DNA from: Candidatus Daviesbacteria bacterium
GTDB lineage: Bacteria; Patescibacteriota; Microgenomatia; Daviesbacterales; UBA10151
DNA: 64,000 nucleotides
Direction: 5' to 3'
NCBI GenBank assembly: GCA_016176405.1
Contig: JACOXG010000012.1
Span: 2,217 to 66,216, forward strand
Under the pieces are notes generated by a model. It was not told where the DNA came from. It ran no database searches and saw only the letters and a program-made list of their open reading frames with translations. The position numbers were made by a program, and so were the translations under genes. Of this stretch, positions 1-30,060 are shown one piece after another. Position 1 is the first letter of the stretch, and every line of letters begins with the position of its first letter.

Positions 1-3000
1 ATTTGTGATAAATGTGGAGTGGAAGTAACTCAATCCAAGGTGAGAAGGGAGCGGATGGGACACATTAATTTGGCCTCCCCAGTTGCTCATTCTTGGTTTG
101 TTAAGGGTGCTCCTTCAAAGTTATCCTTAATTTTGGATATTTCTCCTAAAAATTTGGAATCAGTGGTTTATTTTGCCTCTTACTTGATAACTGGTATAGA
201 TTCAGAGGGTAAAACAGCTGCCTTAAATAAATTAGAGGAAGATTTAAAGGAAAAGGTTAAAGAATTGGAAAAAGAATTGGATAAAAATATTAAAGGTATG
301 GAAGTACTTGTTAAAAAAGATCTTTCCCAGTTGAAAAAACGCACTAATAAAGAAAGTTTTGAATTGGAGGCAGCTGAGGTAGAACTGAAAAACAGACAGG
401 AGATACAAAAATTAAGAGATAATTTGGTGGTGGAGCAAGGTCAGCTGGAGGGTATTTTTAAGGTAGTATCTGAGCTGGTTAAGGCCACCGTGCCCTCAAA
501 GCTTTTATCAGAAGAAGAATATTCTAAGTTATCAGAGTATGGAGTTTCCGATTTTGTGACAGTGGACATGGGAGCAGAGGCCCTCTTGGAGGTTTTACAG
601 AAGTTGGATTTGGATAAGTTATCTGCTAGCTTAAGAGATGAGGTTCGCAAATCATCTGGCCAAAAACATATAAAGGCCACCAAAAGACTGAGAGTAATAG
701 AGGGGATGCGCTCTGCTGGGATCTCTCCCCAATGGCTGATTATGCGAATTTTGCCGGTGATTCCACCTGACCTTCGGCCAATGGTGCAGCTGCCAGGAGG
801 AAGATTTGCCACCTCTGATTTGAATGATTTATACAGAAGAGTAATCAACAGAAACAACCGCTTAAATAGACTAATTAATTTAGGAGCCCCAGAGATAATT
901 TTAAGAAATGAAAAAAGAATGTTACAGGAAGCTGTTGATGCTTTGATTGATACTTCATCACGCTCTTCAAGACGTGGTGGACCGGTAGTTTCTCATATGC
1001 TCAGATCTTTATCTGATATGTTGCGGGGGAAACAAGGAAGATTTAGACAGAATCTTTTGGGAAAAAGGGTTGATTATTCAGGTAGATCAGTGATTGTGGT
1101 TGGTCCAAATTTAAGATTGGATCAGGTCGGTTTGCCTAAGGAGATGGCGTTGGAAATGTTTAAACCATTTGTTTTGCGGGAAATGATTGCCAGGGGTTTA
1201 GCCTCCAATGTTAAAGGAGCCAAAAATGTTTTGGAAATGAGGCCTTCTGAGGTGTGGGATATTTTGGAAGAGATTATTACCGGCCACCCGATTTTGATTA
1301 ATCGAGCACCAACTCTTCATAGATTGGGTATTCAGGCTTTCTTCCCAGTTTTAGTTGATGGTAATGCTATCCAAATTCATCCTTGTATTTGTGCAGGTTT
1401 TAATGCTGATTTTGATGGAGATCAGATGGCAGTTCATGTACCCTTATCTCAAACTGCTCAAGATGAGGCCAAAAAATTGATGATGGCTCAGGAAAATATC
1501 TTTGGACCTGCCAATGCTCAACCAATTACTGTGCCAAATAGGGAAATGGCCTTAGGTTGTTATTATCTGACCCAGATTTTTGAATCTGACGAAAATATTA
1601 AATTTTTTATCAGTGAGGATGAGGCAATTATTGCTTTCAAGATTGGAAAGGTAGGTTTGCAGCAAAAAATTAAAATAAAAATAAATGGAGAAATTTTGGA
1701 AACAACTGTTGGTAGGATTATCTTCAATCAAGTTTTACCTGCGCAGTTGAGATTTATTAATAACCCCATCAAAGGTTTGACCATTAGAGACATTATTTTA
1801 AAAGCTTGTGAAATTTTAGATAAAGATCAGGTTACCAAGCTTGTTGATGATATAAAAACCATCGGTTTTTGGGGAGCAACCATGGCGGGTATTTCCATCT
1901 CCATTTTTGATGCCAAAATTGTGCCTGATAAGCAAAAATATCTGGATGAAGCAGAAAAAGAGATTCAAAAGATTGAATCTAATATGAATAAAGGCTTGAT
2001 TACTCCGCAAGAAAAATCACAGCTTTCACAGATGGTTTGGATTAAAACTACTGAAGATTTAGCCAACGCTACCTGGGATTATTTGGGAGTTGATAACCCC
2101 ATCAGAATGATGGTGGAGGCAGGAGCAAGAGGATCTCGGGATCAAGCTAAGCAACTATCTGCCATGAGAGGACTATCCACAGATCCAACTGGAAAAATCG
2201 TGGAACTACCTACCAAATCAAATTATCGCCAAGGTTTATCTGTTTTTGAATACTTTACTTCAGCCCGGGGAGCTCGTAAGGGTGTGGCTGATAAAGCCTT
2301 AAAAACTGCCGACGCTGGATACTTGACTAGAAGACTGGTTGATGTAGCTCACGATGTGATCATTAGGATTGAGGATTGTGGGACTAAAGAAAAATTGGAA
2401 TACTCAATTGCCAAAGCCACATTTACCCATGGTAGAGAAAAACTTTTGGGCAGAATGGTAAGTGATAATATTTTAGATCCTAATAGTAGAAAGGTAATTG
2501 TTAAATCTGGCGCCATTTTGATGGAGGAAGAGGTTGAAGATTTGATCAAAGCAGGGGTAGACACTGTCAAAGCCCGTTCTCCTCTTACTTGTGAGGCTAA
2601 GTTTGGTATTTGTGCTAGCTGTTACGGAGCAGATTTAACCACCAGACAGTTAGTGGAAATCGGTACACCTGTTGGAGTGGTAGCTGCTCAGGCCATTGGT
2701 GAACCAGGCACACAACTGACCATGAGAACTTTCCATACAGGAGGAATTGTGGGATTGGATATTACCCAAGGTTTGCCTAGAGTGGAGGAATTATTTGAAG
2801 TGAGAACTCCCAAGATAGTGGCACCTGTTTCAGAGATTGCTGGTAAAGTAGCTATTTTAGAAACTGAAACGGGAGTAAGGGTCAGAGTGAGAACAACTCA
2901 AAAACCTCATGAGGAAAGAGAATATCTGATCCCTGCCACCTCTCAGCTTTTGGTGGAAGAAGATCAGTTGATTGATGCAGGTACAGTTTTAGCCTCAGGT

Positions 3001-3468
3001 CATATCGACATCAAAGAAATTTTAAGAGTACAGGGATTAAAAGCTGCGCAGCGCTATATTGTGGATGAGGTTAGAACAATTTATGAGTCTCAGGGTGTAC
3101 CTATTAATGAGAAACATTTTGAGGTGATTGTTAGAAAAATGTCTGATAAAGTTAGGATTGAGACACAAGGAGATACTAATCTTTTACCAGGAGAGGTAGT
3201 TGATAAGATTCGTTTTGAAGAAGAAAATTTGCGAGTTTTAGCTTCAGGTGGGGAACCTTCCACTGCTGAGGTGGTAATTTTGGGAATTACTAGGGCCTCA
3301 CTTTTGACTGAAAGCTTCTTATCTGCTGCATCATTTCAGGAAACAACAACAGTATTATCTGATGCTGCCATCTCAGGTAAAGTGGATAGGTTGTTAGGAC
3401 TTAAAGAAAATGTTATTATTGGACGTCTGATACCCACTAGCAGTGAAAGGGCTAAGGTAGAATCATAA
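1..3468 (+). CDS. rpoC: DNA-directed RNA polymerase subunit beta' (5'-truncated by the window edge)
   Basis: Frame is open from nt 1 (ICDKCGVEV... N-terminal zinc-binding region). Motifs NADFDGDQM, GxKQGRFRQNLLGKRVDYSGRSVIVVGP and SFQETT tail are present. Length and order match rpoC followed by rpsL. Confidence 0.95.
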   Translation: MCDKCGVEVTQSKVRRERMGHINLASPVAHSWFVKGAPSKLSLILDISPKNLESVVYFASYLITGIDSEGKTAALNKLEEDLKEKVKELEKELDKNIKGMEVLVKKDLSQLKKRTNKESFELEAAEVELKNRQEIQKLRDNLVVEQGQLEGIFKVVSELVKATVPSKLLSEEEYSKLSEYGVSDFVTVDMGAEALLEVLQKLDLDKLSASLRDEVRKSSGQKHIKATKRLRVIEGMRSAGISPQWLIMRILPVIPPDLRPMVQLPGGRFATSDLNDLYRRVINRNNRLNRLINLGAPEIILRNEKRMLQEAVDALIDTSSRSSRRGGPVVSHMLRSLSDMLRGKQGRFRQNLLGKRVDYSGRSVIVVGPNLRLDQVGLPKEMALEMFKPFVLREMIARGLASNVKGAKNVLEMRPSEVWDILEEIITGHPILINRAPTLHRLGIQAFFPVLVDGNAIQIHPCICAGFNADFDGDQMAVHVPLSQTAQDEAKKLMMAQENIFGPANAQPITVPNREMALGCYYLTQIFESDENIKFFISEDEAIIAFKIGKVGLQQKIKIKINGEILETTVGRIIFNQVLPAQLRFINNPIKGLTIRDIILKACEILDKDQVTKLVDDIKTIGFWGATMAGISISIFDAKIVPDKQKYLDEAEKEIQKIESNMNKGLITPQEKSQLSQMVWIKTTEDLANATWDYLGVDNPIRMMVEAGARGSRDQAKQLSAMRGLSTDPTGKIVELPTKSNYRQGLSVFEYFTSARGARKGVADKALKTADAGYLTRRLVDVAHDVIIRIEDCGTKEKLEYSIAKATFTHGREKLLGRMVSDNILDPNSRKVIVKSGAILMEEEVEDLIKAGVDTVKARSPLTCEAKFGICASCYGADLTTRQLVEIGTPVGVVAAQAIGEPGTQLTMRTFHTGGIVGLDITQGLPRVEELFEVRTPKIVAPVSEIAGKVAILETETGVRVRVRTTQKPHEEREYLIPATSQLLVEEDQLIDAGTVLASGHIDIKEILRVQGLKAAQRYIVDEVRTIYESQGVPINEKHFEVIVRKMSDKVRIETQGDTNLLPGEVVDKIRFEEENLRVLASGGEPSTAEVVILGITRASLLTESFLSAASFQETTTVLSDAAISGKVDRLLGLKENVIIGRLIPTSSERAKVES

Positions 3469-3592
3469 AATTCGAATTTCGAATATCGAAGCTCTAAACA
3501 AATTCAAAATTCGAATGTTTAAAATTTTGAAAATTTGAATTTAGATATTGTTTCGGATTTCTTATTTCGAATTTACGACTGAAAAGGAGTAT

Positions 3593-4060
3593 ATGCCAAC
3601 CATTAACCAATTAGTCAGAAAAGGCAGAAAAAAGATCTATAAAAAAGTTAAAGCAACTGCCTTAAGAAGGAGCTTTAATGCTAAAGATCGAAGATACACT
3701 CTTGAGTTTAATCCCCAAAAGCGGGGAGTGGTCACTTTGGTTAAAACCATGACCCCCAAAAAACCTAATTCAGCTTTAAGAAAAGTAGCCAGAGTCAGAT
3801 TATCTAACAAAACTGAGGTGACTGCTTATATTCAAGGTGAAGGTCATAATTTGGCAGAACACGGCATAGTTTTGGTCAGAGGTGGTAGAGTTAAAGATTT
3901 ACCAGGTGTAAAATATCATCTGATTAGGGGTAAGCTTGATTTGGAAGGAGTGGTGGGTAGGAAAAAGGGCAGATCAAGATATGGTACTAAAGCAGGCGGA
4001 CCTGCAGCCGTACCAAGACCAGTGGCTCAACCTGCTCCAGCTCCGGAGGCAGCGTCATAG
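3593..4060 (+). CDS. rpsL: 30S ribosomal protein S12, with a ~20-aa Pro/Ala-rich C-terminal extension
   Basis: [12 protein letters not shown]...[19 protein letters not shown] is canonical S12. The ATG at 3593 sits 5 nt after a GAAAAGGAG SD. The upstream TTG at 3548 was rejected. The tail [20 protein letters not shown] is atypical. Confidence 0.9.
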
Positions 4061-4061
4061 T

Positions 4062-4535
4062 ATGCGTAGTGGTAAAGTAGAAAAAAAGGTACTTCCTTTG
4101 GACCCAATTTATAATTCCAGATTGGTCACTAGAGTAATTAATAAAGTGATGAGGGATGGTAAAAGGAGTATTGCTCAAAAATTAGTTTATATGGTTTTGG
4201 AGCAAATCAAGCAAACTAAACAAGATCCCATTGCTGTTTTGGAAAAAGCTATTTTGAATGTTTCCCCTAAAATGGAGGTCAGACCAAGAAGGGTGGGAGG
4301 AGCATCTTATCAGGTGCCATCTGAGGTGAGAGGTGATAGGAAAGAAGCTTTGGCTATTAGGTGGATTTTGGAGGGAGCCAAAAAAAGAGCCAATAGAGAG
4401 TTTCATACTTTTGATAAAAAGTTAATGGCAGAATTACTAGATGCAGCAAATAATACAGGAGCAGCTATCAAAAGAAGAGATGATATGCAAAAAGTAGCAA
4501 ATGCTAACCGTGCATTCAGTCATTTCCGCTGGTAA
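4062..4535 (+). CDS. rpsG: 30S ribosomal protein S7
   Basis: MRSGKVEKKVLPLDPIYNSRLVTRVINKVMRDGKRSIAQKLVY matches the S7 N-terminus. The ATG lies 1 nt after the rpsL stop. The longer ORF starting at 3936 overlaps rpsL in another frame and was rejected. Confidence 0.9.
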   Translation: MRSGKVEKKVLPLDPIYNSRLVTRVINKVMRDGKRSIAQKLVYMVLEQIKQTKQDPIAVLEKAILNVSPKMEVRPRRVGGASYQVPSEVRGDRKEALAIRWILEGAKKRANREFHTFDKKLMAELLDAANNTGAAIKRRDDMQKVANANRAFSHFRW

Positions 4536-4555
4536 ATCTTTGGTAAGATATAATC

Positions 4556-4798
4556 ATGATTTCTGATATTGTAGGTTGGATTGGGGCTGGTTTAGTAATT
4601 TCAGCTTATTTTTTAGTATCAACCAAAAAGCTCCCCCCCATCTCTGTGACTTATCAGCTTATGAATTTATTTGGTGCGTTAGGAGTGGGAATTAATGTTT
4701 TGGTGCAGGAAGCTTATCCTTCCTTGGCAATTCAAATACTTTGGGCAATGATAGCAGTATATGGTTTGTATAAAGCCTTCAAAACACGGACTTCTTGA
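4556..4798 (+). CDS. small hypothetical membrane protein (2-3 predicted TM helices)
   Basis: 80-aa ORF with hydrophobic segments (IVGWIGAGLVISAYFLV; LFGALGVGINVLV; AIQILWAMIAVYGLY). It is inserted between rpsG and fusA, where these genes are normally adjacent. Confidence 0.45.
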   Translation: MISDIVGWIGAGLVISAYFLVSTKKLPPISVTYQLMNLFGALGVGINVLVQEAYPSLAIQILWAMIAVYGLYKAFKTRTS

Positions 4799-4826
4799 CA
4801 GTACAACACTGTGCCACTATCATTTA

Positions 4827-4844
4827 AAATGATTCAAATCATTT
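4827..4844. promoter_or_regulatory. 18-bp inverted repeat AAATGATT-ca-AATCATTT (candidate operator), copy 1, overlapping the start codon of the YerC-like gene
   Basis: Two perfect 8-bp arms with a 2-bp spacer. The identical 28-mer ttaaaatgattcaaatcatttaaacaaa recurs at 5301-5328. Confidence 0.5.
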
Positions 4845-4850
4845 AAACAA

Positions 4851-5300
4851 ATGACACAGGTCTCAAGATACCCAATTTCCAAAGAGGTTTATGAAAGATG
4901 CTGGGAAATATTTGTAAAGACTTTAATAGGGATTCACAATGTCAAAGATGCTGAGATAGTTATTAATGATTTGCTAACCCCTACCGAACGGATCATGTTA
5001 GTAAAAAGATTAGCAACAGCATTACTTTTAATGCAGGGATATGAATATCGAGAAATTAGCAAAGTTTTAAGAGTCAGTCTGCCAACCATATCCGCAGTTA
5101 ACAGATCTTTAAGATATGGCAGTAATGGTTACAATAAAGCACTTTCTAAAATCTTAAAAGATGAACAGTTTGCAGAATTTCTTAATAAAATGATCCAAGG
5201 CATAATTGCTCTGCCAGCTCGAGGGGGGATAGGCTCGGGAACGTATAGGTATCTTAGACAAGAACTCCAGAAAAGGTCAAAAGACAGAAAAGCCTTCTAG
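4851..5300 (+). CDS. YerC/YecD (TrpR-like) family HTH DNA-binding protein
   Basis: LLTPTERIMLVKRLATALLLMQGYEYREISKVLRVSLPTISAVNRSL matches the Trp-repressor-like YerC family signature. The gene is bracketed by identical 28-bp repeats at 4824-4851 and 5301-5328. Confidence 0.6.
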   Translation: MTQVSRYPISKEVYERCWEIFVKTLIGIHNVKDAEIVINDLLTPTERIMLVKRLATALLLMQGYEYREISKVLRVSLPTISAVNRSLRYGSNGYNKALSKILKDEQFAEFLNKMIQGIIALPARGGIGSGTYRYLRQELQKRSKDRKAF

Positions 5301-5303
5301 TTA

Positions 5304-5321
5304 AAATGATTCAAATCATTT
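5304..5321. promoter_or_regulatory. 18-bp inverted repeat AAATGATT-ca-AATCATTT (candidate operator), copy 2, upstream of the histidine-phosphatase gene
   Basis: Identical to copy 1. It lies immediately after the YerC-like stop codon and 17 nt before the next ATG. Confidence 0.5.
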
Positions 5322-5338
5322 AAACAAAGTGAAAAAAA

Positions 5339-5878
5339 ATGATTGCCATAATATTTGAAGCGCATGGGACTTCTTTTGATAATGAGAATAATCTCTCTTC
5401 TGGACATTTTGATGTAGAACTATCCCCTTTAGGCATTAAACAAGCCAAAGAATTAGGAGAACGCTACAAAAATGAGCATTTTGAGGCTATTTTTGTGTCT
5501 GATTTACAAAGATCATATAAAACTGCAGAAATTGCTTTTGGAAATAAATTTCCTATTAGAAAAGATAAGAGACTTCGAGAATGTGATTACGGGGATTTAA
5601 CCAGACACCCAAGCAGTGAAGTGGAATCACTTAAAGTAAAGCATATTACAAAACCATTTCCAAATGGAGAATCTTATAAAGATTGTTTAAAAAGGATAAA
5701 GGACTTTTTAGATGAGTTAAGACAAAAATACCACGGCCGTGGGAAAAATGTTTTAATTATTGGTCACAGAGCAACTCAATATGGACTAGAACATTGGATA
5801 AATGGAATTGATATAAAAACTTTACTAACCACCCCCTTTAAATGGCAACCAGGTTGGAAGTATGAATTTGACTTTTAG
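5339..5878 (+). CDS. histidine phosphatase superfamily (phosphoglycerate-mutase-like) protein
   Basis: 179 aa. N-terminal IIFEAHGTS resembles the RHG motif, with E where the catalytic R is expected. A later IIGHRATQ histidine is present. Family assignment rests on motif resemblance only. Confidence 0.45.
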   Translation: MIAIIFEAHGTSFDNENNLSSGHFDVELSPLGIKQAKELGERYKNEHFEAIFVSDLQRSYKTAEIAFGNKFPIRKDKRLRECDYGDLTRHPSSEVESLKVKHITKPFPNGESYKDCLKRIKDFLDELRQKYHGRGKNVLIIGHRATQYGLEHWINGIDIKTLLTTPFKWQPGWKYEFDF

Positions 5879-5904
5879 GAGCAAAAAAATTAATATATAC
5901 TTCT

Positions 5905-5932
5905 GGCCTCCCAAATTCGAGGGAGGTTTTTT
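5905..5932 (+). terminator. Rho-independent terminator
   Basis: GGCCTCCC-aaattcga-GGGAGG followed by TTTTTT, directly after the phosphatase gene. Confidence 0.7.
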
Positions 5933-5953
5933 AAATTAAGGTAAAATTTAGAT

Positions 5954-6181
5954 ATGGACAAGAAATTGAGACAGGAAAAACTTAAAATGTGGAAGGAGAA
6001 TTTGGCAAAGCTGGAAAAAGAGCTGGAAGATGTCATGCTTAAAAAAGGAGAAGCAGCTCAGCAGGGAGATTTATCTGAAAATGCAGCCTATACCATGGCT
6101 GGGGAAGATGCAGAAACATATAGGGTACAGATAGAACAGGTGAAGAAAATTATTGGGGATTTAGAGAAAGGAGCAAATTAA
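5954..6181 (+). CDS. stand-alone GreA/GreB N-terminal coiled-coil domain protein (no FKBP-like C-terminal domain)
   Basis: 75 aa. LEKELEDV...GDLSENAAY...IEQVKKIIGDLE matches the GreA N-terminal coiled-coil signature (GDLxENAEY). An AGG-rich sequence lies upstream. The ORF ends after the coiled coil. Confidence 0.5.
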   Translation: MDKKLRQEKLKMWKENLAKLEKELEDVMLKKGEAAQQGDLSENAAYTMAGEDAETYRVQIEQVKKIIGDLEKGAN

Positions 6182-6256
6182 GAGATACGTAATACGTGAT
6201 AAGTGAGATGTTAGAAACTTATCTCATATCACATATCTCGTATCACAATTATCACC

Positions 6257-8368
6257 ATGGCAGTACTTAAGACTAAAAGAGACTTTCCCTTAGATAGAAT
6301 CCGCAACATGGGCATTATTGCTCACATTGATGCTGGAAAAACTACCACTACTGAGAGAATCCTTTTTTACACAGGTAGAACCTATAAAATTGGAGATATT
6401 GATGAGGGCACAACAGTCACAGATTGGATGGAGCAGGAAAGAGAAAGAGGAATTACTATTGTTTCTGCAGCCATTACCACTTTTTGGAAAGATACCAGAA
6501 TTAATTTGATTGATACCCCAGGTCATGTTGATTTTACAGCTGAGGTAGAAAGAAGTTTGCGTGTTTTGGATGGAGGAGTGATTGTTTTAGATGCCTCATC
6601 AGGAGTCCAATCTCAAACAGAAACTGTGTGGAGACAGGCCAATAAATATAAAGTACCACTTATTGCTTTTGCCAATAAAATGGATGTGGTAGGGGCAGAT
6701 TTTATGGGCACAATTAAATCTGCCAGGGATAAACTTGGTGCTAATGCTTTGGCCTATAACCTGCCTATTGGTAAAGAGAATGATTTTAAAGGAGTTGTAG
6801 ACCTTTTAACCCAGAAAGCTTTTATTTGGGAAGGGGATGAAACAGGAGCTAAATTTAGTGAGATAGAGATCCCCTCAGATATGGCTTCGCAAGTAAAAGA
6901 AGCCAGGGAAAAATTGGTTGAGGAAATTTCTGGCACAGATGATCAATTAATGGAAAAATTCTTGGGTGGACAGGAAATTTCCATAGAAGAGCTTAAAAAG
7001 GCTTTAAGAAAAGCAGTGATTGAGAATAAAATTGTGCCTGTTTTAGCAGGATCCTCTTTAAGAAATAAAGGTGTTCAACCAATGTTAGATTGCGTGGTGG
7101 AATATTTACCATCGCCTCAAGATATTGCTGAGGTAGTTGGCCAAAACCCTAAGACTTCTGAGCAAGAAACAAGAAAGGCTGATCCGGCTGCATCTTTGGC
7201 TGCCCTTTCTTTTAAAATTCAAGTTGATCCACATGTGGGAAAACTAACCTATATCAGAGTTTATTCAGGAACATTAAAGAGTGGTTCCTATGTTTACAAT
7301 GCCACCAAACAAATTAAAGAAAGAGTGGGCAGACTACTTTTAATGCATGCCAATGATAGGGAGGAAATTGAGGAGGCTTTTGCTGGTGAGATTGTGGCAG
7401 CAGTAGGTTTGAAAGATACTGTTACTGGGGACACTCTCTGTGATGAAAATGCGCCAATTATTTTGGAATCTATTACTTTTCCTGATCCGGTGATTTCTTT
7501 AGCCATTGAACCCAAAACAAAATCTGATCAGGAAAAATTGGGTTATGCTTTAAATAGATTATCTGAGGAAGATCCGACTTTTAGAGTCAAATCTGATGCC
7601 GAGACTGGGCAAACAATCATTGCTGGCATGGGTGAGCTGCAATTGGAAATTTTGGTGGAGCGGATGAGAAGAGAATTTAAGGTGGAGGCCAATGTTGGTC
7701 AACCCCAGGTGGCTTATAAAGAAACCATTACCCAAAATGCAGAGGGTGAAGGTAAATATATCAGACAGACTGGGGGAAGAGGACAATATGGTCACTGTTT
7801 GCTTCGAATTGAACCTTTACCTCGGGGACAGGGAAGAGAATTTGTCTCAGAAGTGGTTGGCGGTGCTATTCCCAGAGAATTTATTCCTCCAATTGAAAAA
7901 GGAGTGATTGAAAAAGAAGATACGGGAATTTTGGCTGGATATCCGGTGACTGATATAAAAGTAGTAGTTTATGATGGTTCTTTCCATGATGTTGATTCAT
8001 CAGAAATTGCTTTCAAAATTGCTGCTTCTTTAGGTTTATCAGAGGCTGCTAAAAAAGCAGAGTTAATACTTCTTGAGCCTATTATGAAGGTGGAGGTGAC
8101 TACTCCTGAGGATTTTATGGGAGATATTATTGGAGATTTGTCCTCAAAAAGGGCTCAGATTTTAGGGACAGAAAAAAGAGGAAATTACACAGTCATTTTA
8201 GCTTTAGTACCCTTGGCAGAAATGCATGGATATGCTACAGCTTTAAGATCAATGTCCGAAGGAAGAGCCTCATATTATATGGAAGCAGATCATTATGAAA
8301 CAGTGCCCCAAAATATCACTCAAAAAATAGTTGAGTCCTCAGGCTTTACAGGTAGAGTAGAAAGGTAA
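6257..8368 (+). CDS. fusA: elongation factor G
   Basis: 703 aa. [31 protein letters not shown] GTPase motifs and domains II-V are conserved. Confidence 0.95.
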
Positions 8369-8424
8369 GAGTTAACGCTTGCACTTTAACTGCGGCAATT
8401 ACTAAAGTTTTAGCCTCTAAAGGC

Positions 8425-9486
8425 ATGGCAGAGGAGAGAAGCGTTGATCAAATTGACAATGCTCCTGAGGAAAAAGCCCGCGGTATTACTATTAATATTT
8501 CTCACCAAGAATATGAAACACCATCTAGACATTATGCTCACATCGACATGCCAGGTCACGCAGATTACATCAAAAATATGATCACTGGTGCTGCTCAGAC
8601 TGATGGAGCAATTTTGGTGGTGTCTGCTCCAGATGGTCCCATGCCTCAAACCAGAGAACATCTTTTACTGGCTCGCCAAGTAGGAGTGCCAGCCATTGTG
8701 GTTTATCTCAATAAAATTGATCAGGTGTCTGATCCAGAGTTGATTGATTTAGTTGAGGAAGAAATTAGAGATTTACTAAAAAAATATGAATATGATCCGC
8801 AATCTCCTATTATTCGAGGTTCAGCTTTGAAAGCTTTGCAAGGTGATGCTGAGGCTGTCAAATCAATTGAGGAACTGATGGCCAAAGTGGATGAATGGAT
8901 TCCCACCCCAGTAAGGGATGTGGATAAGCCATTTTTGATGGCGGTAGAGGATGTTTTCTCAATCAAGGGTAGAGGAACAGTAGTCACTGGAAGAATTGAA
9001 AGAGGTAAGGTTAAAATTAATGAGGAAATAGAAATTGTGGGAATTAGACCTACCAAAAAGAGTGTGGTAACCGGAATTGAGATGTTTCATAAACTTTTGG
9101 ATGAAGGTCAGGCAGGAGATAATGCCGGAATTTTACTAAGAGGAATTGAAAAAGATGATGTGGAAAGAGGGCAAGTTTTGGCCAAACCTGGTTCAATTAC
9201 TCCCCACTCAGAGTTTGAAGCAGAAGTTTATGTGTTAAGTAAAGAAGAGGGTGGAAGACACACTCCATTTTTCAAAGGTTACAGACCACAATTTTATATT
9301 AGAACTACAGATGTGACTGGTGAGGTGCAATTGCCAGAAGGTGTGGAGATGGCCATGCCAGGAGATACTGTAAAGGTAGTGGGAAAATTAATTACCCCAG
9401 TGGCTATGGAAGAAGGATTAAGATTTGCTGTTAGAGAAGGTGGAAAAACAGTTGGAGCTGGAGTTATTACCAAGATAATAGCTTAA
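8425..9486 (+). CDS. tuf: elongation factor Tu, N-terminally truncated (G1/P-loop GHVDHGKT absent). Possible pseudogene or assembly artefact
   Basis: The frame upstream of the first ATG reads [47 protein letters not shown]. Homology begins at EF-Tu residue ~26, downstream of the P-loop. No in-frame start or GHVDHGKT occurs in any frame between the fusA stop (8368) and 8425. The remainder (DxPGHADY, NKID, domains II-III) is intact. Confidence 0.85.
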
Positions 9487-9512
9487 AGTGGTAAAATAGT
9501 TAGCACATTAAT

Positions 9513-9821
9513 ATGCCAAGAGGGAGAATTCGTGTCAAACTGAAAAGTTATGATCACCGAGTGCTGGATAGCACTTGTGAATCCCTTTTGGATACCGCCC
9601 TTAGAACCGGTGCTAAAATTGTTGGTCCCATTCCCCTTCCTACTAAAATTGAAAGAATTACAGTTTTAAGATCTCCTCATACAGATAAAAATTCCAGAGA
9701 AGCTTTTGAAATTAAAACTCACAAAAGATTGGTAGATATTGTTGAACCCACCCAAAAAACCATCGATTCCCTAATGCATTTAGAAATCCCAGCAGGAGTT
9801 GATATTGAAGTTAAGATGTAG
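9513..9821 (+). CDS. rpsJ: 30S ribosomal protein S10
   Basis: [19 protein letters not shown]...[38 protein letters not shown] is canonical S10. Confidence 0.93.
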
Positions 9822-9986
9822 CCTTGCATTCAGCCTCGAACTTGTGTTAAAATTCTGTAAGAACATGTTAATTACTTAAAGTTTATCTTTAAGAACTATC
9901 AGTAGATCGCGCGTCGGGGAACGATACGGCGAATCTTTAAGCGAGATACTGAGTGAGCGCTCCAGAAATGGGCCTCACTCTTTTTA

Positions 9987-10832
9987 ATGGGAAAAAACAT
10001 GATTAATACATTATTAGGAATTAAAAAAACTATGACTAGTACATATGACTCCCGCGGTAGAAGGGTAGGGGCAACTGTGGTTGAAATGAGTCCCAATTTT
10101 GTAACTCAAATAAAAACTATGGATGGGAAAGATGGCTATAATGGAGTTCAACTTGGGTTTGGCACAAAAAAATCTGTTAAGAAACCCCAACTTGGACTAG
10201 GGAAAAAACTAGGAATAGAAAAACCAATCAGATGGTTTAGGGAAGTAAGAATTAAGGGTGAAGGGGAAAGCGTAAAGGGTGAAGAAATGAAACCTGGAAC
10301 AGAAATGAGCAAGCTCTCTCCTGGACAGGAGATAAAACTGGACCAGGTTTTTTCAATTGGAGATGAAGTTAAAGTAACAGGAACTTCCAAAGGCAGAGGA
10401 TTTGCCGGAGTGGTTAAAAGACACGGCTTTCATGGAGGTCCTAAAACTCATGGTCAATCAGATAGACATAGAGCTCCAGGTGCTATTGGTTCTGGAACAA
10501 CTCCGGGTAGAGTTTATAAAGGTAAAAAAATGGCAGGGCATATGGGAAATGTTCAAGTTTCTACTAGGGGTTTAGAGGTAGTGGGAATAGATAAAGAAAA
10601 AAATTTATTAACAATTAAAGGAGCAGTTCCTGGAGCAACTGGGGGGTTAGTTACGGTTACCAAATTAGGCAGAATTAAGGGCTATACTCCACCTCCGGAG
10701 GAAAAGGTGGAAGAAAGTGATGAGGGAGAAGTGCAAAGTGCAAAGTCAGAACCAGCTGAATCAAATGAAGCACCGAAAGAGGCGCCTTCGCCAGAGGCTA
10801 CGGCGCCCGAAGGAGGAAAAGATGCCAGTTAA
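9987..10832 (+). CDS. rplC: 50S ribosomal protein L3 with an acidic ~60-aa C-terminal extension
   Basis: GIKKTMTSTYDSRGRRVGATVVE...GFAGVVKRHGFHGGPKTHGQSDRHRAPGAIGSGTTPGRVYKGKKMAGHMG matches L3. Alternative start ATG at 9999. The tail EESDEGEVQSAKSEPAESNEAPKEAPSPEA is lineage-specific. Confidence 0.9.
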   Translation: MGKNMINTLLGIKKTMTSTYDSRGRRVGATVVEMSPNFVTQIKTMDGKDGYNGVQLGFGTKKSVKKPQLGLGKKLGIEKPIRWFREVRIKGEGESVKGEEMKPGTEMSKLSPGQEIKLDQVFSIGDEVKVTGTSKGRGFAGVVKRHGFHGGPKTHGQSDRHRAPGAIGSGTTPGRVYKGKKMAGHMGNVQVSTRGLEVVGIDKEKNLLTIKGAVPGATGGLVTVTKLGRIKGYTPPPEEKVEESDEGEVQSAKSEPAESNEAPKEAPSPEATAPEGGKDAS

Positions 10833-29742: not shown

Positions 29743-30012
29743 CTATCTAATATAAAAATCAGAAAAGTTTTGCACCTTACCTTCATTTACCAAAACAGAT
29801 TCCACATTTGCTAAATTAGGGCCTTCATGGCACCAGCTTAAAAATTGGTCTAATTTATTCTCCTCTCCTTCAATCTCAATATAAACCGAACCATCCGGCA
29901 TATTTTTGGCAAAACCAGTTAAATTTAGCTTGTCAGCCTCTTCCTTGCTACTTACTCTAAAAAACACTCCCTGAACACTACCATAAATTTTTATATTTAA
30001 ATGTTTGTACAC
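29743..30012 (-). CDS. acyP: acylphosphatase
   Basis: IYGSVQGVFFRVSSKEEADKLNLTGFAKNMPDGSVYIEIEG matches the V-x-G-x-VQGV-x-FR signature. 89 aa. Confidence 0.8.
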   Translation of the reverse strand: MYKHLNIKIYGSVQGVFFRVSSKEEADKLNLTGFAKNMPDGSVYIEIEGEENKLDQFLSWCHEGPNLANVESVLVNEGKVQNFSDFYIR

Positions 30013-30060
30013 TTTATTGGCAAAATATGTTGTTTAAATGATTTAAATCAATGGAACAAT

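Follow-up and report, generated by a model that had tools for sequence, protein, structure and literature searches.

The str operon of Candidatus Daviesbacteria and its near relatives follows the plan rpoB-rpoC-rpsL-rpsG-(promoter and leader hairpin)-greA-N-fusA-...-tuf, in which greA-N encodes the N-terminal domain of GreA alone and is an ancestral member of the operon, not an insertion. Daviesbacteria are tiny groundwater bacteria, and bacteria of the candidate phyla radiation (CPR) are genome-reduced. We analyzed a 64,000-nt stretch of a Daviesbacteria contig (JACOXG010000012.1; hereafter, the window) in which four open reading frames (ORF1 to ORF4), all on the plus strand, lie between rpsG and fusA, two genes that adjoin each other in most bacteria. 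The original prediction, made from the letters of the window, had taken this interval for a single lineage-specific accessory insertion of 1.7 kb that splits the operon. ORF calls and a hairpin search found the four genes and the hairpin where they had been placed, profile searches against Pfam and NCBIfam confirmed the four gene identities, and transcription-related genes do part rpsG from fusA. The single insertion itself did not hold: comparison of synteny in related genomes put ORF4 (greA-N) at the same place in every related str operon recovered (>50 loci), and the cargo represented by ORF1 to ORF3 recurs in differing orders at a hot spot. For greA-N, such presence in relatives is the outcome that the original prediction had itself named as refuting it. 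It is likely that the interval consists of two layers, an ancestral layer of greA-N with its leader and a variable cargo layer at the rpsG/greA-N junction.

The loci compared comprise 80 genome loci gathered via ORF2 homologues, 80 metagenome loci gathered via ORF4 homologues, and several further contigs gathered via exact relatives of ORF4; the window proteins were mapped onto all of them, and individual loci are given below as L numbers. In profile searches, ORF4 matched GreA_GreB_N (PF03449; E-value 7e-8, 33 bits, gathering threshold 24.5) and TIGR01462 (E-value 1.1e-8), and no match to the GreA C-terminal domain (PF01272) was found in ORF4 or anywhere else in the 64-kb window. GreA-N proteins of 73-85 aa, consisting of the N-terminal domain alone, lie between rpsG and fusA in every related locus recovered. 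Matches to ORF4 with at least 48% identity were always stand-alone ORFs of 73-85 aa, flanked by rpsG and fusA wherever the contig reaches the flanks; matches below 48% identity were full-length GreA proteins of ~130-170 aa (mostly ~150 aa), encoded away from fusA. The gene lies no more than 6 nt from fusA, or overlaps it stop to start, in 54 of 65 related loci, and in the simplest relatives (L082-L084) the order is merely rpsG, 91 nt, greA-N, and fusA. Among 1.84 billion representatives, some 25-30 clusters of short proteins (~50-125 aa, 50% identity) ranked above all full-length GreA, and a search for full-length GreA with a query derived from Wildermuthbacteria returned only Parcubacteria-type matches. 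Judged from these sequence relationships, GreA-N is a compact family restricted to the clade. The 74-aa genes are mostly annotated as "hypothetical protein."

The missing C-terminal domain, thought to be necessary for RNA polymerase (RNAP) binding (PMC4598747), could mean that ORF4 derives from a full-length greA by ongoing decay and is now a pseudogene fragment without a function of its own. The conservation of the family makes this extremely improbable. The homologues number 247, and the 120 listed share 73-88% identity at a near-uniform length (nearly all 72-85 aa, three of 94-97 aa). Over 23 aligned sequences, 31 of the 75 positions are invariant, including the whole tip GDLSENAAY, which is likewise invariant in a separate alignment of 16 sequences; its residues D39 and E42 are the equivalents of D41 and E44 of E. 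coli GreA, which are catalytic (PMC7527559). Furthermore, the stop/start overlap with fusA is conserved, and no remnant coding for the C-terminal domain was found 3' of ORF4. The AlphaFold2 model of ORF4 (mean predicted local distance difference test score 86.6) is a two-helix hairpin with helices at residues 3-36 and 44-71, and its best match in the PDB was E. coli GreA (1grj; root-mean-square deviation 1.2 A over 60 columns), with an E-value of only 0.15: GreA came first in rank in this fold search, yet among generic coiled coils. A profile search of the PDB with the GreA-N alignment gave nothing at E ≤ 0.01. RNAP binding by GreA is ascribed to the C-terminal domain (PMC4598747, PMC7527559), which weighs against a working GreA-N.

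The element for which a strong terminator had been proposed ahead of ORF4 is a promoter-proximal leader hairpin. A conserved hairpin with a T-tract does precede greA-N-fusA, as predicted, but it is not simply an operon-end terminator: it sits 3' of a conserved promoter and starts at ~+2/+3 of the predicted transcript, which makes it a leader element. With this promoter just ahead of the hairpin, the related claim that fusA is transcribed separately is plausible. In the window, the hairpin reads GGCCTCCC-8 nt-GGGAGGTT (5905-5928), followed by a T6 run up to 5932, and lies 27 nt past the ORF3 stop and 21 nt ahead of the ORF4 ATG. It was the top terminator-like site within 3000-10000 (folding energy ~-13 kcal/mol) and has the form of an intrinsic terminator, a GC-rich stem-loop (8-bp stem) followed by a U-tract (T6), with the structure conserved. 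Terminator-like matches numbered 7 against 5.7 expected, so a single match is by itself not above chance; what establishes the hairpin as real is its conservation and covariation in 55 related sequences.

This conservation extends to the promoter. One layout is common to about 50 of the 60 distinct upstream sequences, TTGACTTTT(AGGATC)-17 nt-TAnnAT-~8-9 nt-GC stem-T5-7-ATG, where the stem is usually GCCUCCC/GGGAGGU and the ATG lies 3-40 nt beyond the T-tract. In 56 related sequences, conservation reaches at least 90% at the TTGAC and TAnnAT positions with a fixed 17-nt spacing, and the flanks upstream of these leaders are unrelated to one another because the cargo differs from locus to locus. 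In most leaders, TTGAC and the stem are 38 ± 2 nt apart, which places the stem at ~+2/+3 of the predicted transcript. The promoter motif is unique within the window. A covariance model of promoter plus hairpin scored 83 bits at 5858-5935 and gave one match per related locus, directly 5' of greA-N, with no other match in the window and none in distant Microgenomates loci. Across 55 distinct sequences, 89.6% of the stem cells pair and five of the seven pairs show compensatory changes; none of 500 shuffles reached the observed covariation score, and slid controls paired at ≤69%. The 44 leaders in which stems were compared contain 22 distinct stems with a mean free energy of -12.4 kcal/mol. An alternative antiterminator pairing was considered and rejected, since RNAalifold on 56 leaders predicted the hairpin core alone, and an Rfam scan of 3300-9600 at E ≤ 5 yielded just two chance miRNA matches.

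How the hairpin acts is less clear-cut than its existence. It has about an even chance of serving as an attenuator of its own promoter. In the alternative, the hairpin and T-tract terminate incoming transcripts only and, for transcripts from the adjacent promoter, form a 5'-terminal protective stem-loop and/or a translational element that sequesters the Shine-Dalgarno (SD) sequence; we rate this alternative as rather unlikely, and the two roles are not mutually exclusive. This alternative would fit the strictly conserved distance from the -35 element to the stem, which sets the stem ~2-3 nt from the predicted 5' end. It would also fit the stem itself, an anti-SD/SD pair (CCUCC/GGAGG) in most sequences, and the occurrence of the module before other small ORFs. 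Against this, a GC stem directly followed by T5-7 is a canonical intrinsic terminator whose T-tract is conserved, and promoter-proximal termination before a gre gene occurs in E. coli (PMC2836576).

Several observations weigh against a leader attenuator dedicated to greA-N. Four lineages (L096, L105, L115, and L143) have neither promoter nor hairpin, with greA-N 17-23 nt from rpsG, so the module is dispensable. It is also not specific to greA-N, because second copies precede other small cargo ORFs in L122 (1218-1293) and L126 (1140-1219); cargo may have been gained together with, or inserted beside, such duplicated modules. In 22 of 50 leaders, the ATG follows the T-tract by 3-8 nt and the 3' arm of the stem holds the sole SD-like sequence (GGAGG), 10-15 nt from the ATG. 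Finally, a terminator placed only ~30 nt beyond a promoter would cut short the transcripts that start there, and the element may therefore act mainly as a 5' stabilizer or SD-sequestering hairpin.

In contrast to greA-N, the content of the rpsG/greA-N junction varies. Over 39 distinct loci, the gap between the two genes ranges from 17 to 5136 nt and contains an ORF3-type phosphatase in 12, ORF2 in 8, ORF1 in 3 (L089, L095, and L106 only), unrelated genes only in 11, and no cargo in 12; these categories overlap, because one locus can hold several cargo genes. The phosphatase, the commonest cargo, often overlaps the rpsG stop; in the window, ORF1 starts 20 nt past it. Other cargo includes GNAT acetyltransferases, PlsY, an RHH/RelE-like pair, and unknowns. 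ORF1 to ORF3 are thus variable, optional cargo, and the junction is a hot spot. A single horizontally acquired insertion splitting a canonical operon would be in keeping with the adjacency of rpsG and fusA in most bacteria, and the exact four-gene combination with ORF1 leading was found in this genome only, among the loci compared. It is nevertheless highly improbable, as GreA-N stands at the site in every related locus, ORF1 to ORF3 recur singly and in other orders, and the interval contains no integrase, tRNA, or repeats flanking it as a whole, the sole long repeat bracketing ORF2 alone. Profile searches detected no mobility domains in ORF1 to ORF4. Base composition gave no support for a foreign origin: relative to the window genes, ORF1 to ORF4 have z scores of -0.9 to +0.8 for GC content and -1.35 to +2.0 for GC content at third codon positions, within the host range.

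The possibility that the arrangement is a chimeric join produced by metagenome assembly is practically negligible. One suspicious junction does lie nearby, where tuf lacks its first 27 codons (see below). However, the order ORF3-ORF4-fusA is repeated on short contigs from three other sequencing runs, one of which also includes ORF2, and the arrangement is therefore not an assembly accident; moreover, dozens of independent metagenomic loci and loci from metagenome-assembled genomes (MAGs) share the architecture.

Among the cargo, ORF3 matched His_Phos_1 (PF00300) over its full length (E-value 7.8e-32, 110.9 bits) and missed every NCBIfam equivalog cut-off. In alignments to 9mmh and 4ij5, its nucleophilic His9 and R58, E81, and H143 align with catalytic residues. 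ORF3 had been described as carrying Glu in place of the catalytic Arg of the RHG motif, but the residue aligned with that Arg is A8, and E7 stands one position earlier; E7-A8-H9 thus takes the place of x-R-H, and relatives have E-[AT]-H at this signature.

ORF2 is a DNA-binding protein flanked by two identical palindromic sites, O1 and O2, which the original prediction had not mentioned, just as it had not mentioned the two promoters. It matched Trp_repressor (PF01371; E-value 1.1e-14, 54.6 bits, gathering threshold 27) and, barely over the cutoff of 42.2, TIGR02531 YerC/YecD (42.7 bits), and its family profile matched PDB entries 3frw, 3kor, and 3g1c over residues 11-106 (E-values 5e-11 to 6e-10). 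One of these, 3g1c, is HisR of E. eligens (PMC9413887). The 131 homologues are all ~146-150 aa long, with a conserved C-terminal extension of ~45 aa. The ORF2 promoter matches 11 of 12 positions and is the best site in 3000-10000. O1, whose palindrome AAATGATT-CA-AATCATTT occupies 4827-4844, spans the predicted +1 and runs as far as the ORF2 ATG; O2 begins 1 nt past the ORF2 stop and ends 11 nt ahead of the ORF3 ATG. The five closest relatives have an equivalent TTGACx-17-TAtcAT immediately 5' of the palindrome, and in them both copies change in step with dyad symmetry kept (e.g., TAATTCAAATTA, ATGATACGTATCAT, and ATGATTTAAATCAT).

The arrangement is widespread. In 56 of 78 Patescibacteria loci, a stretch of at least 12 nt is identical between the two 100-nt flanks of the ORF2 homologue, and the shared sequence is nearly always a palindrome of up to 36 bp that is lineage specific (L007-L081; for example, ATGTTTTAAAACAT, ATGTATTAATACAT, and CGATATATCG in different lineages). 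Among 1335 control ORFs from the same loci, at most 4.4% have such a shared stretch in their flanks, a figure that includes the ORF2 genes. In the window as in relatives, palindromes occupy -10/+1 of the ORF2 promoter, and they covary across lineages. Based on these sequence patterns, the twin palindromes are probably operators of ORF2-type proteins, in agreement with YerC (HisR), a TrpR-family repressor that is often autoregulated and whose 20-bp palindromic operators are specific to the lineage (PMC9413887).

Alternatively, the palindromes could serve a small gene cassette as sites of recombination or mobility, and hopping of this cassette between loci would account for the unrelated contexts of ORF2 homologues. 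In 56 of 78 loci, a single gene stands between the direct repeats, the neighboring genes are heterogeneous, and the 28-nt copies in the window are perfect. Only in the closest subclade do ORF2 homologues belong to the str operon, those in the other 75 loci of the genome-contig scan lying elsewhere. We nonetheless consider mobility sites quite improbable. The protein is a 149-aa helix-turn-helix protein without a catalytic domain, and binding to palindromes of ~20 bp, commonly with autoregulation, is typical of the TrpR/HisR family (PMC9413887). A conserved promoter has its -10/+1 region within the upstream copy, and in several lineages the downstream copy is spaced from the next ATG much as the upstream copy is from its own. 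Extra copies within 10-20 kb were found in only 5 of 45 loci. What does tell against an operator reading is the heterogeneity of the genes 3' of ORF2 homologues, which weakens the case for the second site as a target-gene operator: an unannotated, apparently secreted or membrane-anchored family is the commonest (11 loci), followed by RecA-like proteins in three Curtissbacteria loci and a phosphatase in three, the rest being mostly singletons. A common regulon among these 3' genes was accordingly rejected, extra site copies also being confined to those 5 of 45 loci. A correlation between helix-turn-helix residues and palindrome type was suggestive but confounded by phylogeny and was not used as evidence.

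An acylphosphatase gene on the minus strand (29743-30012; Pfam Acylphosphatase, E-value 2.6e-23) has a third near-copy of the ORF2 site 17 nt ahead of it and is followed by an alpha/beta-hydrolase-like ORF. The acylphosphatase may be a further member of the ORF2 regulon, in which case both predicted targets would be phosphatases. Two further observations concern ORF2 homologues. In L060 (4239-4880), from a Woesebacteria MAG, the homologue is in two pieces ~190 nt apart (query residues 1-53 and 48-146), which may reflect an insertion or frameshift within the gene, and in L004 a partial copy of the TTGACTTTTAGGATCA promoter motif lies upstream of ORF2 (~9880-9910). The coordinates of the features in the window are collected in Table 1.

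Table 1. Positions of genes and predicted elements in the 64,000-nt window
Feature	Position	Strand	Description
rpoC	19-3468	+	
rpsL	3593-4060	+	
rpsG	4062-4535	+	
ORF1	4556-4798	+	80 aa; CBU_0592-family small membrane protein (NCBIfam NF047864, E-value 2.5e-18)
ORF2 promoter	4795-4823	+	Predicted sigma-70-type, TTGACA-17-TATCAT; overlaps ORF1 stop codon
Site O1	4824-4851	+	First copy of perfect 28-nt repeat TTAAAATGATTCAAATCATTTAAACAAA; putative operator
ORF2	4851-5300	+	149 aa; YerC/HisR-type TrpR-family DNA-binding protein
Site O2	5301-5328	+	Identical second 28-nt copy; putative operator gating ORF3
ORF3	5339-5878	+	179 aa; histidine-phosphatase superfamily branch 1
greA-N-fusA promoter	5868-5896	+	Predicted, TTGACT-17-TAATAT; overlaps last ORF3 codons
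Leader hairpin + T6	5905-5932	+	Stem 5905-5912/5921-5928, 8-nt loop
ORF4 (greA-N)	5954-6181	+	75 aa; GreA_GreB_N only
greA-N/fusA spacer	6182-6256	+	75 nt, window-specific; imperfect inverted repeat, arms 6179-6204/6217-6242
fusA	6257-8368	+	
tuf	8425-9486	+	ORF as called
rpsJ	9513-9821	+	
Third near-copy of ORF2 site	30030-30053	-	21/24 nt; none expected by chance

Starting from the observed gene identities, synteny, conservation, covariation, and repeats, we infer promoter use, termination, repressor binding, and GreA-N activity as follows. Transcripts of rpsL-rpsG would run on through ORF1 into ORF2-ORF3. The ORF2 repressor, bound to O1 over its own transcription start, would repress itself and, bound to O2, limit phosphatase expression or read-through, a scheme that we find somewhat more convincing than not; the third site may control the acylphosphatase 25 kb away. 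It is quite likely that the hairpin and T-tract end all upstream transcription and very likely that greA-N-fusA is transcribed from its own promoter, 9 nt upstream of the hairpin. Because it begins at ~+2/+3, the hairpin would become the 5' end of the greA-N mRNA, where it may act as an attenuator or, with a chance ranging from rather low to about even, as a stabilizer or SD-masking element. It could thereby set the output of greA-N and elongation factor G (EF-G), in a layout like that of GraL, the leader of E. coli greA. In E. coli, two-thirds of greA transcripts end at the leader terminator, and GreA autoregulation depends on the leader (PMC2836576, PMC6829880); GreA-N might feed back on its own leader as GreA does there (PMC6829880), but we doubt it. 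Since greA-N is translationally coupled to fusA, its product would be made in large amounts. GreA-N probably still enters the RNAP secondary channel, and its abundant, EF-G-coupled expression may offset the absent docking domain.

Other junctions of the str and S10 operons are also variable. The inverted repeat in the greA-N/fusA spacer of the window (-22.5 kcal/mol, z score -4.7) is unique in the window, and L087 (603-722) and L088 carry an unrelated, repeat-rich insert of 120 nt in this place; the greA-N/fusA junction seems to take up small palindromic inserts repeatedly. In relatives, the spacer between fusA and tuf carries GpsA, a GIY-YIG nuclease, or a DUF433/DUF5615 pair, and that between rpsJ and rplC carries a Sigma70_r4-like protein or a DUF3276 protein (seen at L085 9372-10830, L087 2887-4508, and L082 11117-11807). 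Several str and S10 operon junctions are thus cargo hot spots in the clade, and they are places where assemblies may break. The window tuf (junction 8369-8425, fusA stop 8366-8368) lacks codons for MAE..GHVDHGKT, including the P-loop, and the fusA-tuf spacer, 0.16-2.7 kb long in relatives, is also missing; the frame upstream reads ..VRVNAC up to the junction. No second tuf was found in the window, and exact look-ups of the window fusA and truncated tuf in other assemblies recorded nothing. Either tuf is a pseudogene here, or the contig is mis-joined at a strain-variable hot spot.

Upstream, the rpoC-rpsL spacer (3469-3592) is 124 nt long, AT-rich, and full of TTCGAA-type palindromes (folding energy -27.5 kcal/mol, z score -2.4). 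This array is a window-specific insert, because the gap is 3-26 nt in most relatives. The motif aattcga had been proposed to link it to the loop of the leader hairpin. That link is attributable to chance (7 occurrences against 7.5 expected in the window); the hairpin loop varies among relatives, most of which have almost no rpoC-rpsL spacer. RpsL has a Pro/Ala-rich C-terminal extension of ~25 aa (3980-4060), the Pfam S12 domain ending near residue 129 of 155.

These elements are new variants of known things: a GreA consisting of the N-terminal domain (NTD) only within the str operon, a promoter-proximal hairpin, and a twin-palindrome YerC-like cassette widespread in Patescibacteria. No description of the NTD-only GreA in the str operon, of its leader hairpin, or of the twin-palindrome cassette was found in the open-access literature. 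Gre factors are thought to need the C-terminal domain for holding RNA polymerase, and a catalytic finger conserved alone throughout the clade, coupled to EF-G in the most highly expressed operon, offers a natural test of that need as well as a lead on transcription fidelity and arrest management in genome-reduced CPR bacteria. The promoter-hairpin module offers a compact, testable example, in an operon of ribosomal proteins and elongation factors, of promoter-proximal termination or of control at the 5' end, and the twin palindromes of the 56 Patescibacteria loci provide ready operator predictions for an uncharacterized regulator family. That all three parts hold jointly, with the NTD-only GreA a working secondary-channel factor, the hairpin module an insulator, and the cassette a co-evolving twin-operator unit, is unlikely. 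If they did, GreA-N could be the main Gre factor of Daviesbacteria, and the loss of the docking domain would be offset by expression at the level of EF-G, or the finger would have been re-purposed to link transcription and translation elongation. The promoter-hairpin, with its 38-nt spacing, would stop incoming elongating polymerases and let freshly initiated ones pass, and in Patescibacteria the YerC-like repressors would make up a self-contained cassette with twin operators, DNA specificity and sites evolving together.

Compared with the canonical str operon (rpsL-rpsG-fusA-tuf), the window retains the order of the core genes and their linkage 3' of rpoBC. Unlike the canonical operon, it has an additional conserved greA-N with an internal promoter and hairpin before fusA, and in relatives the rpsG/greA-N, fusA/tuf, and rpsJ/rplC junctions carry variable cargo. 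ORF3 resembles branch 1 phosphatases of the PhoE/CobC/PspA type in its full-length PF00300 match and in the retained catalytic H/R/E/H set, but it has Ala (in relatives, Ala or Thr) where the RHG signature has Arg, with a conserved Glu just before it. ORF2 shares with HisR and TrpR the PF01371 fold, lineage-specific palindromes, and a site over its own promoter. At 149 aa, including its extension, it is longer than members of that family, which are under 100-110 aa. In contrast to HisR, ORF2-type genes have a second, identical palindrome just past the stop codon, and no his or trp genes lie near ORF2, its neighbors being a phosphatase and a distant acylphosphatase.

The leader resembles that of E. 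coli greA in having a promoter, an intrinsic terminator within tens of nt, and then a gre gene. The likeness is one of layout only, with no sequence or Rfam relationship: compared with E. coli, the terminated RNA is predicted to be shorter (~30 nt against 40-60 nt), the stem is shorter too (6-10 bp against 11 bp), and the window element also meets read-through from rpsG and the cargo. GreA-N shares with GreA and GreB the GreA_GreB_N domain, the predicted antiparallel helical hairpin, and both acidic tip residues. Unlike them, it has no C-terminal globular domain, the part credited with RNAP binding (PMC4598747, PMC7527559), and its gene has a fixed place in the str operon, with translational coupling to fusA, whereas the full-length GreA genes of other CPR lineages lie elsewhere. 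The closest counterpart in length is a laboratory construct, the NTD of E. coli GreA with a stop after codon 75 (PMC7527559), which equals the 75 aa of ORF4.

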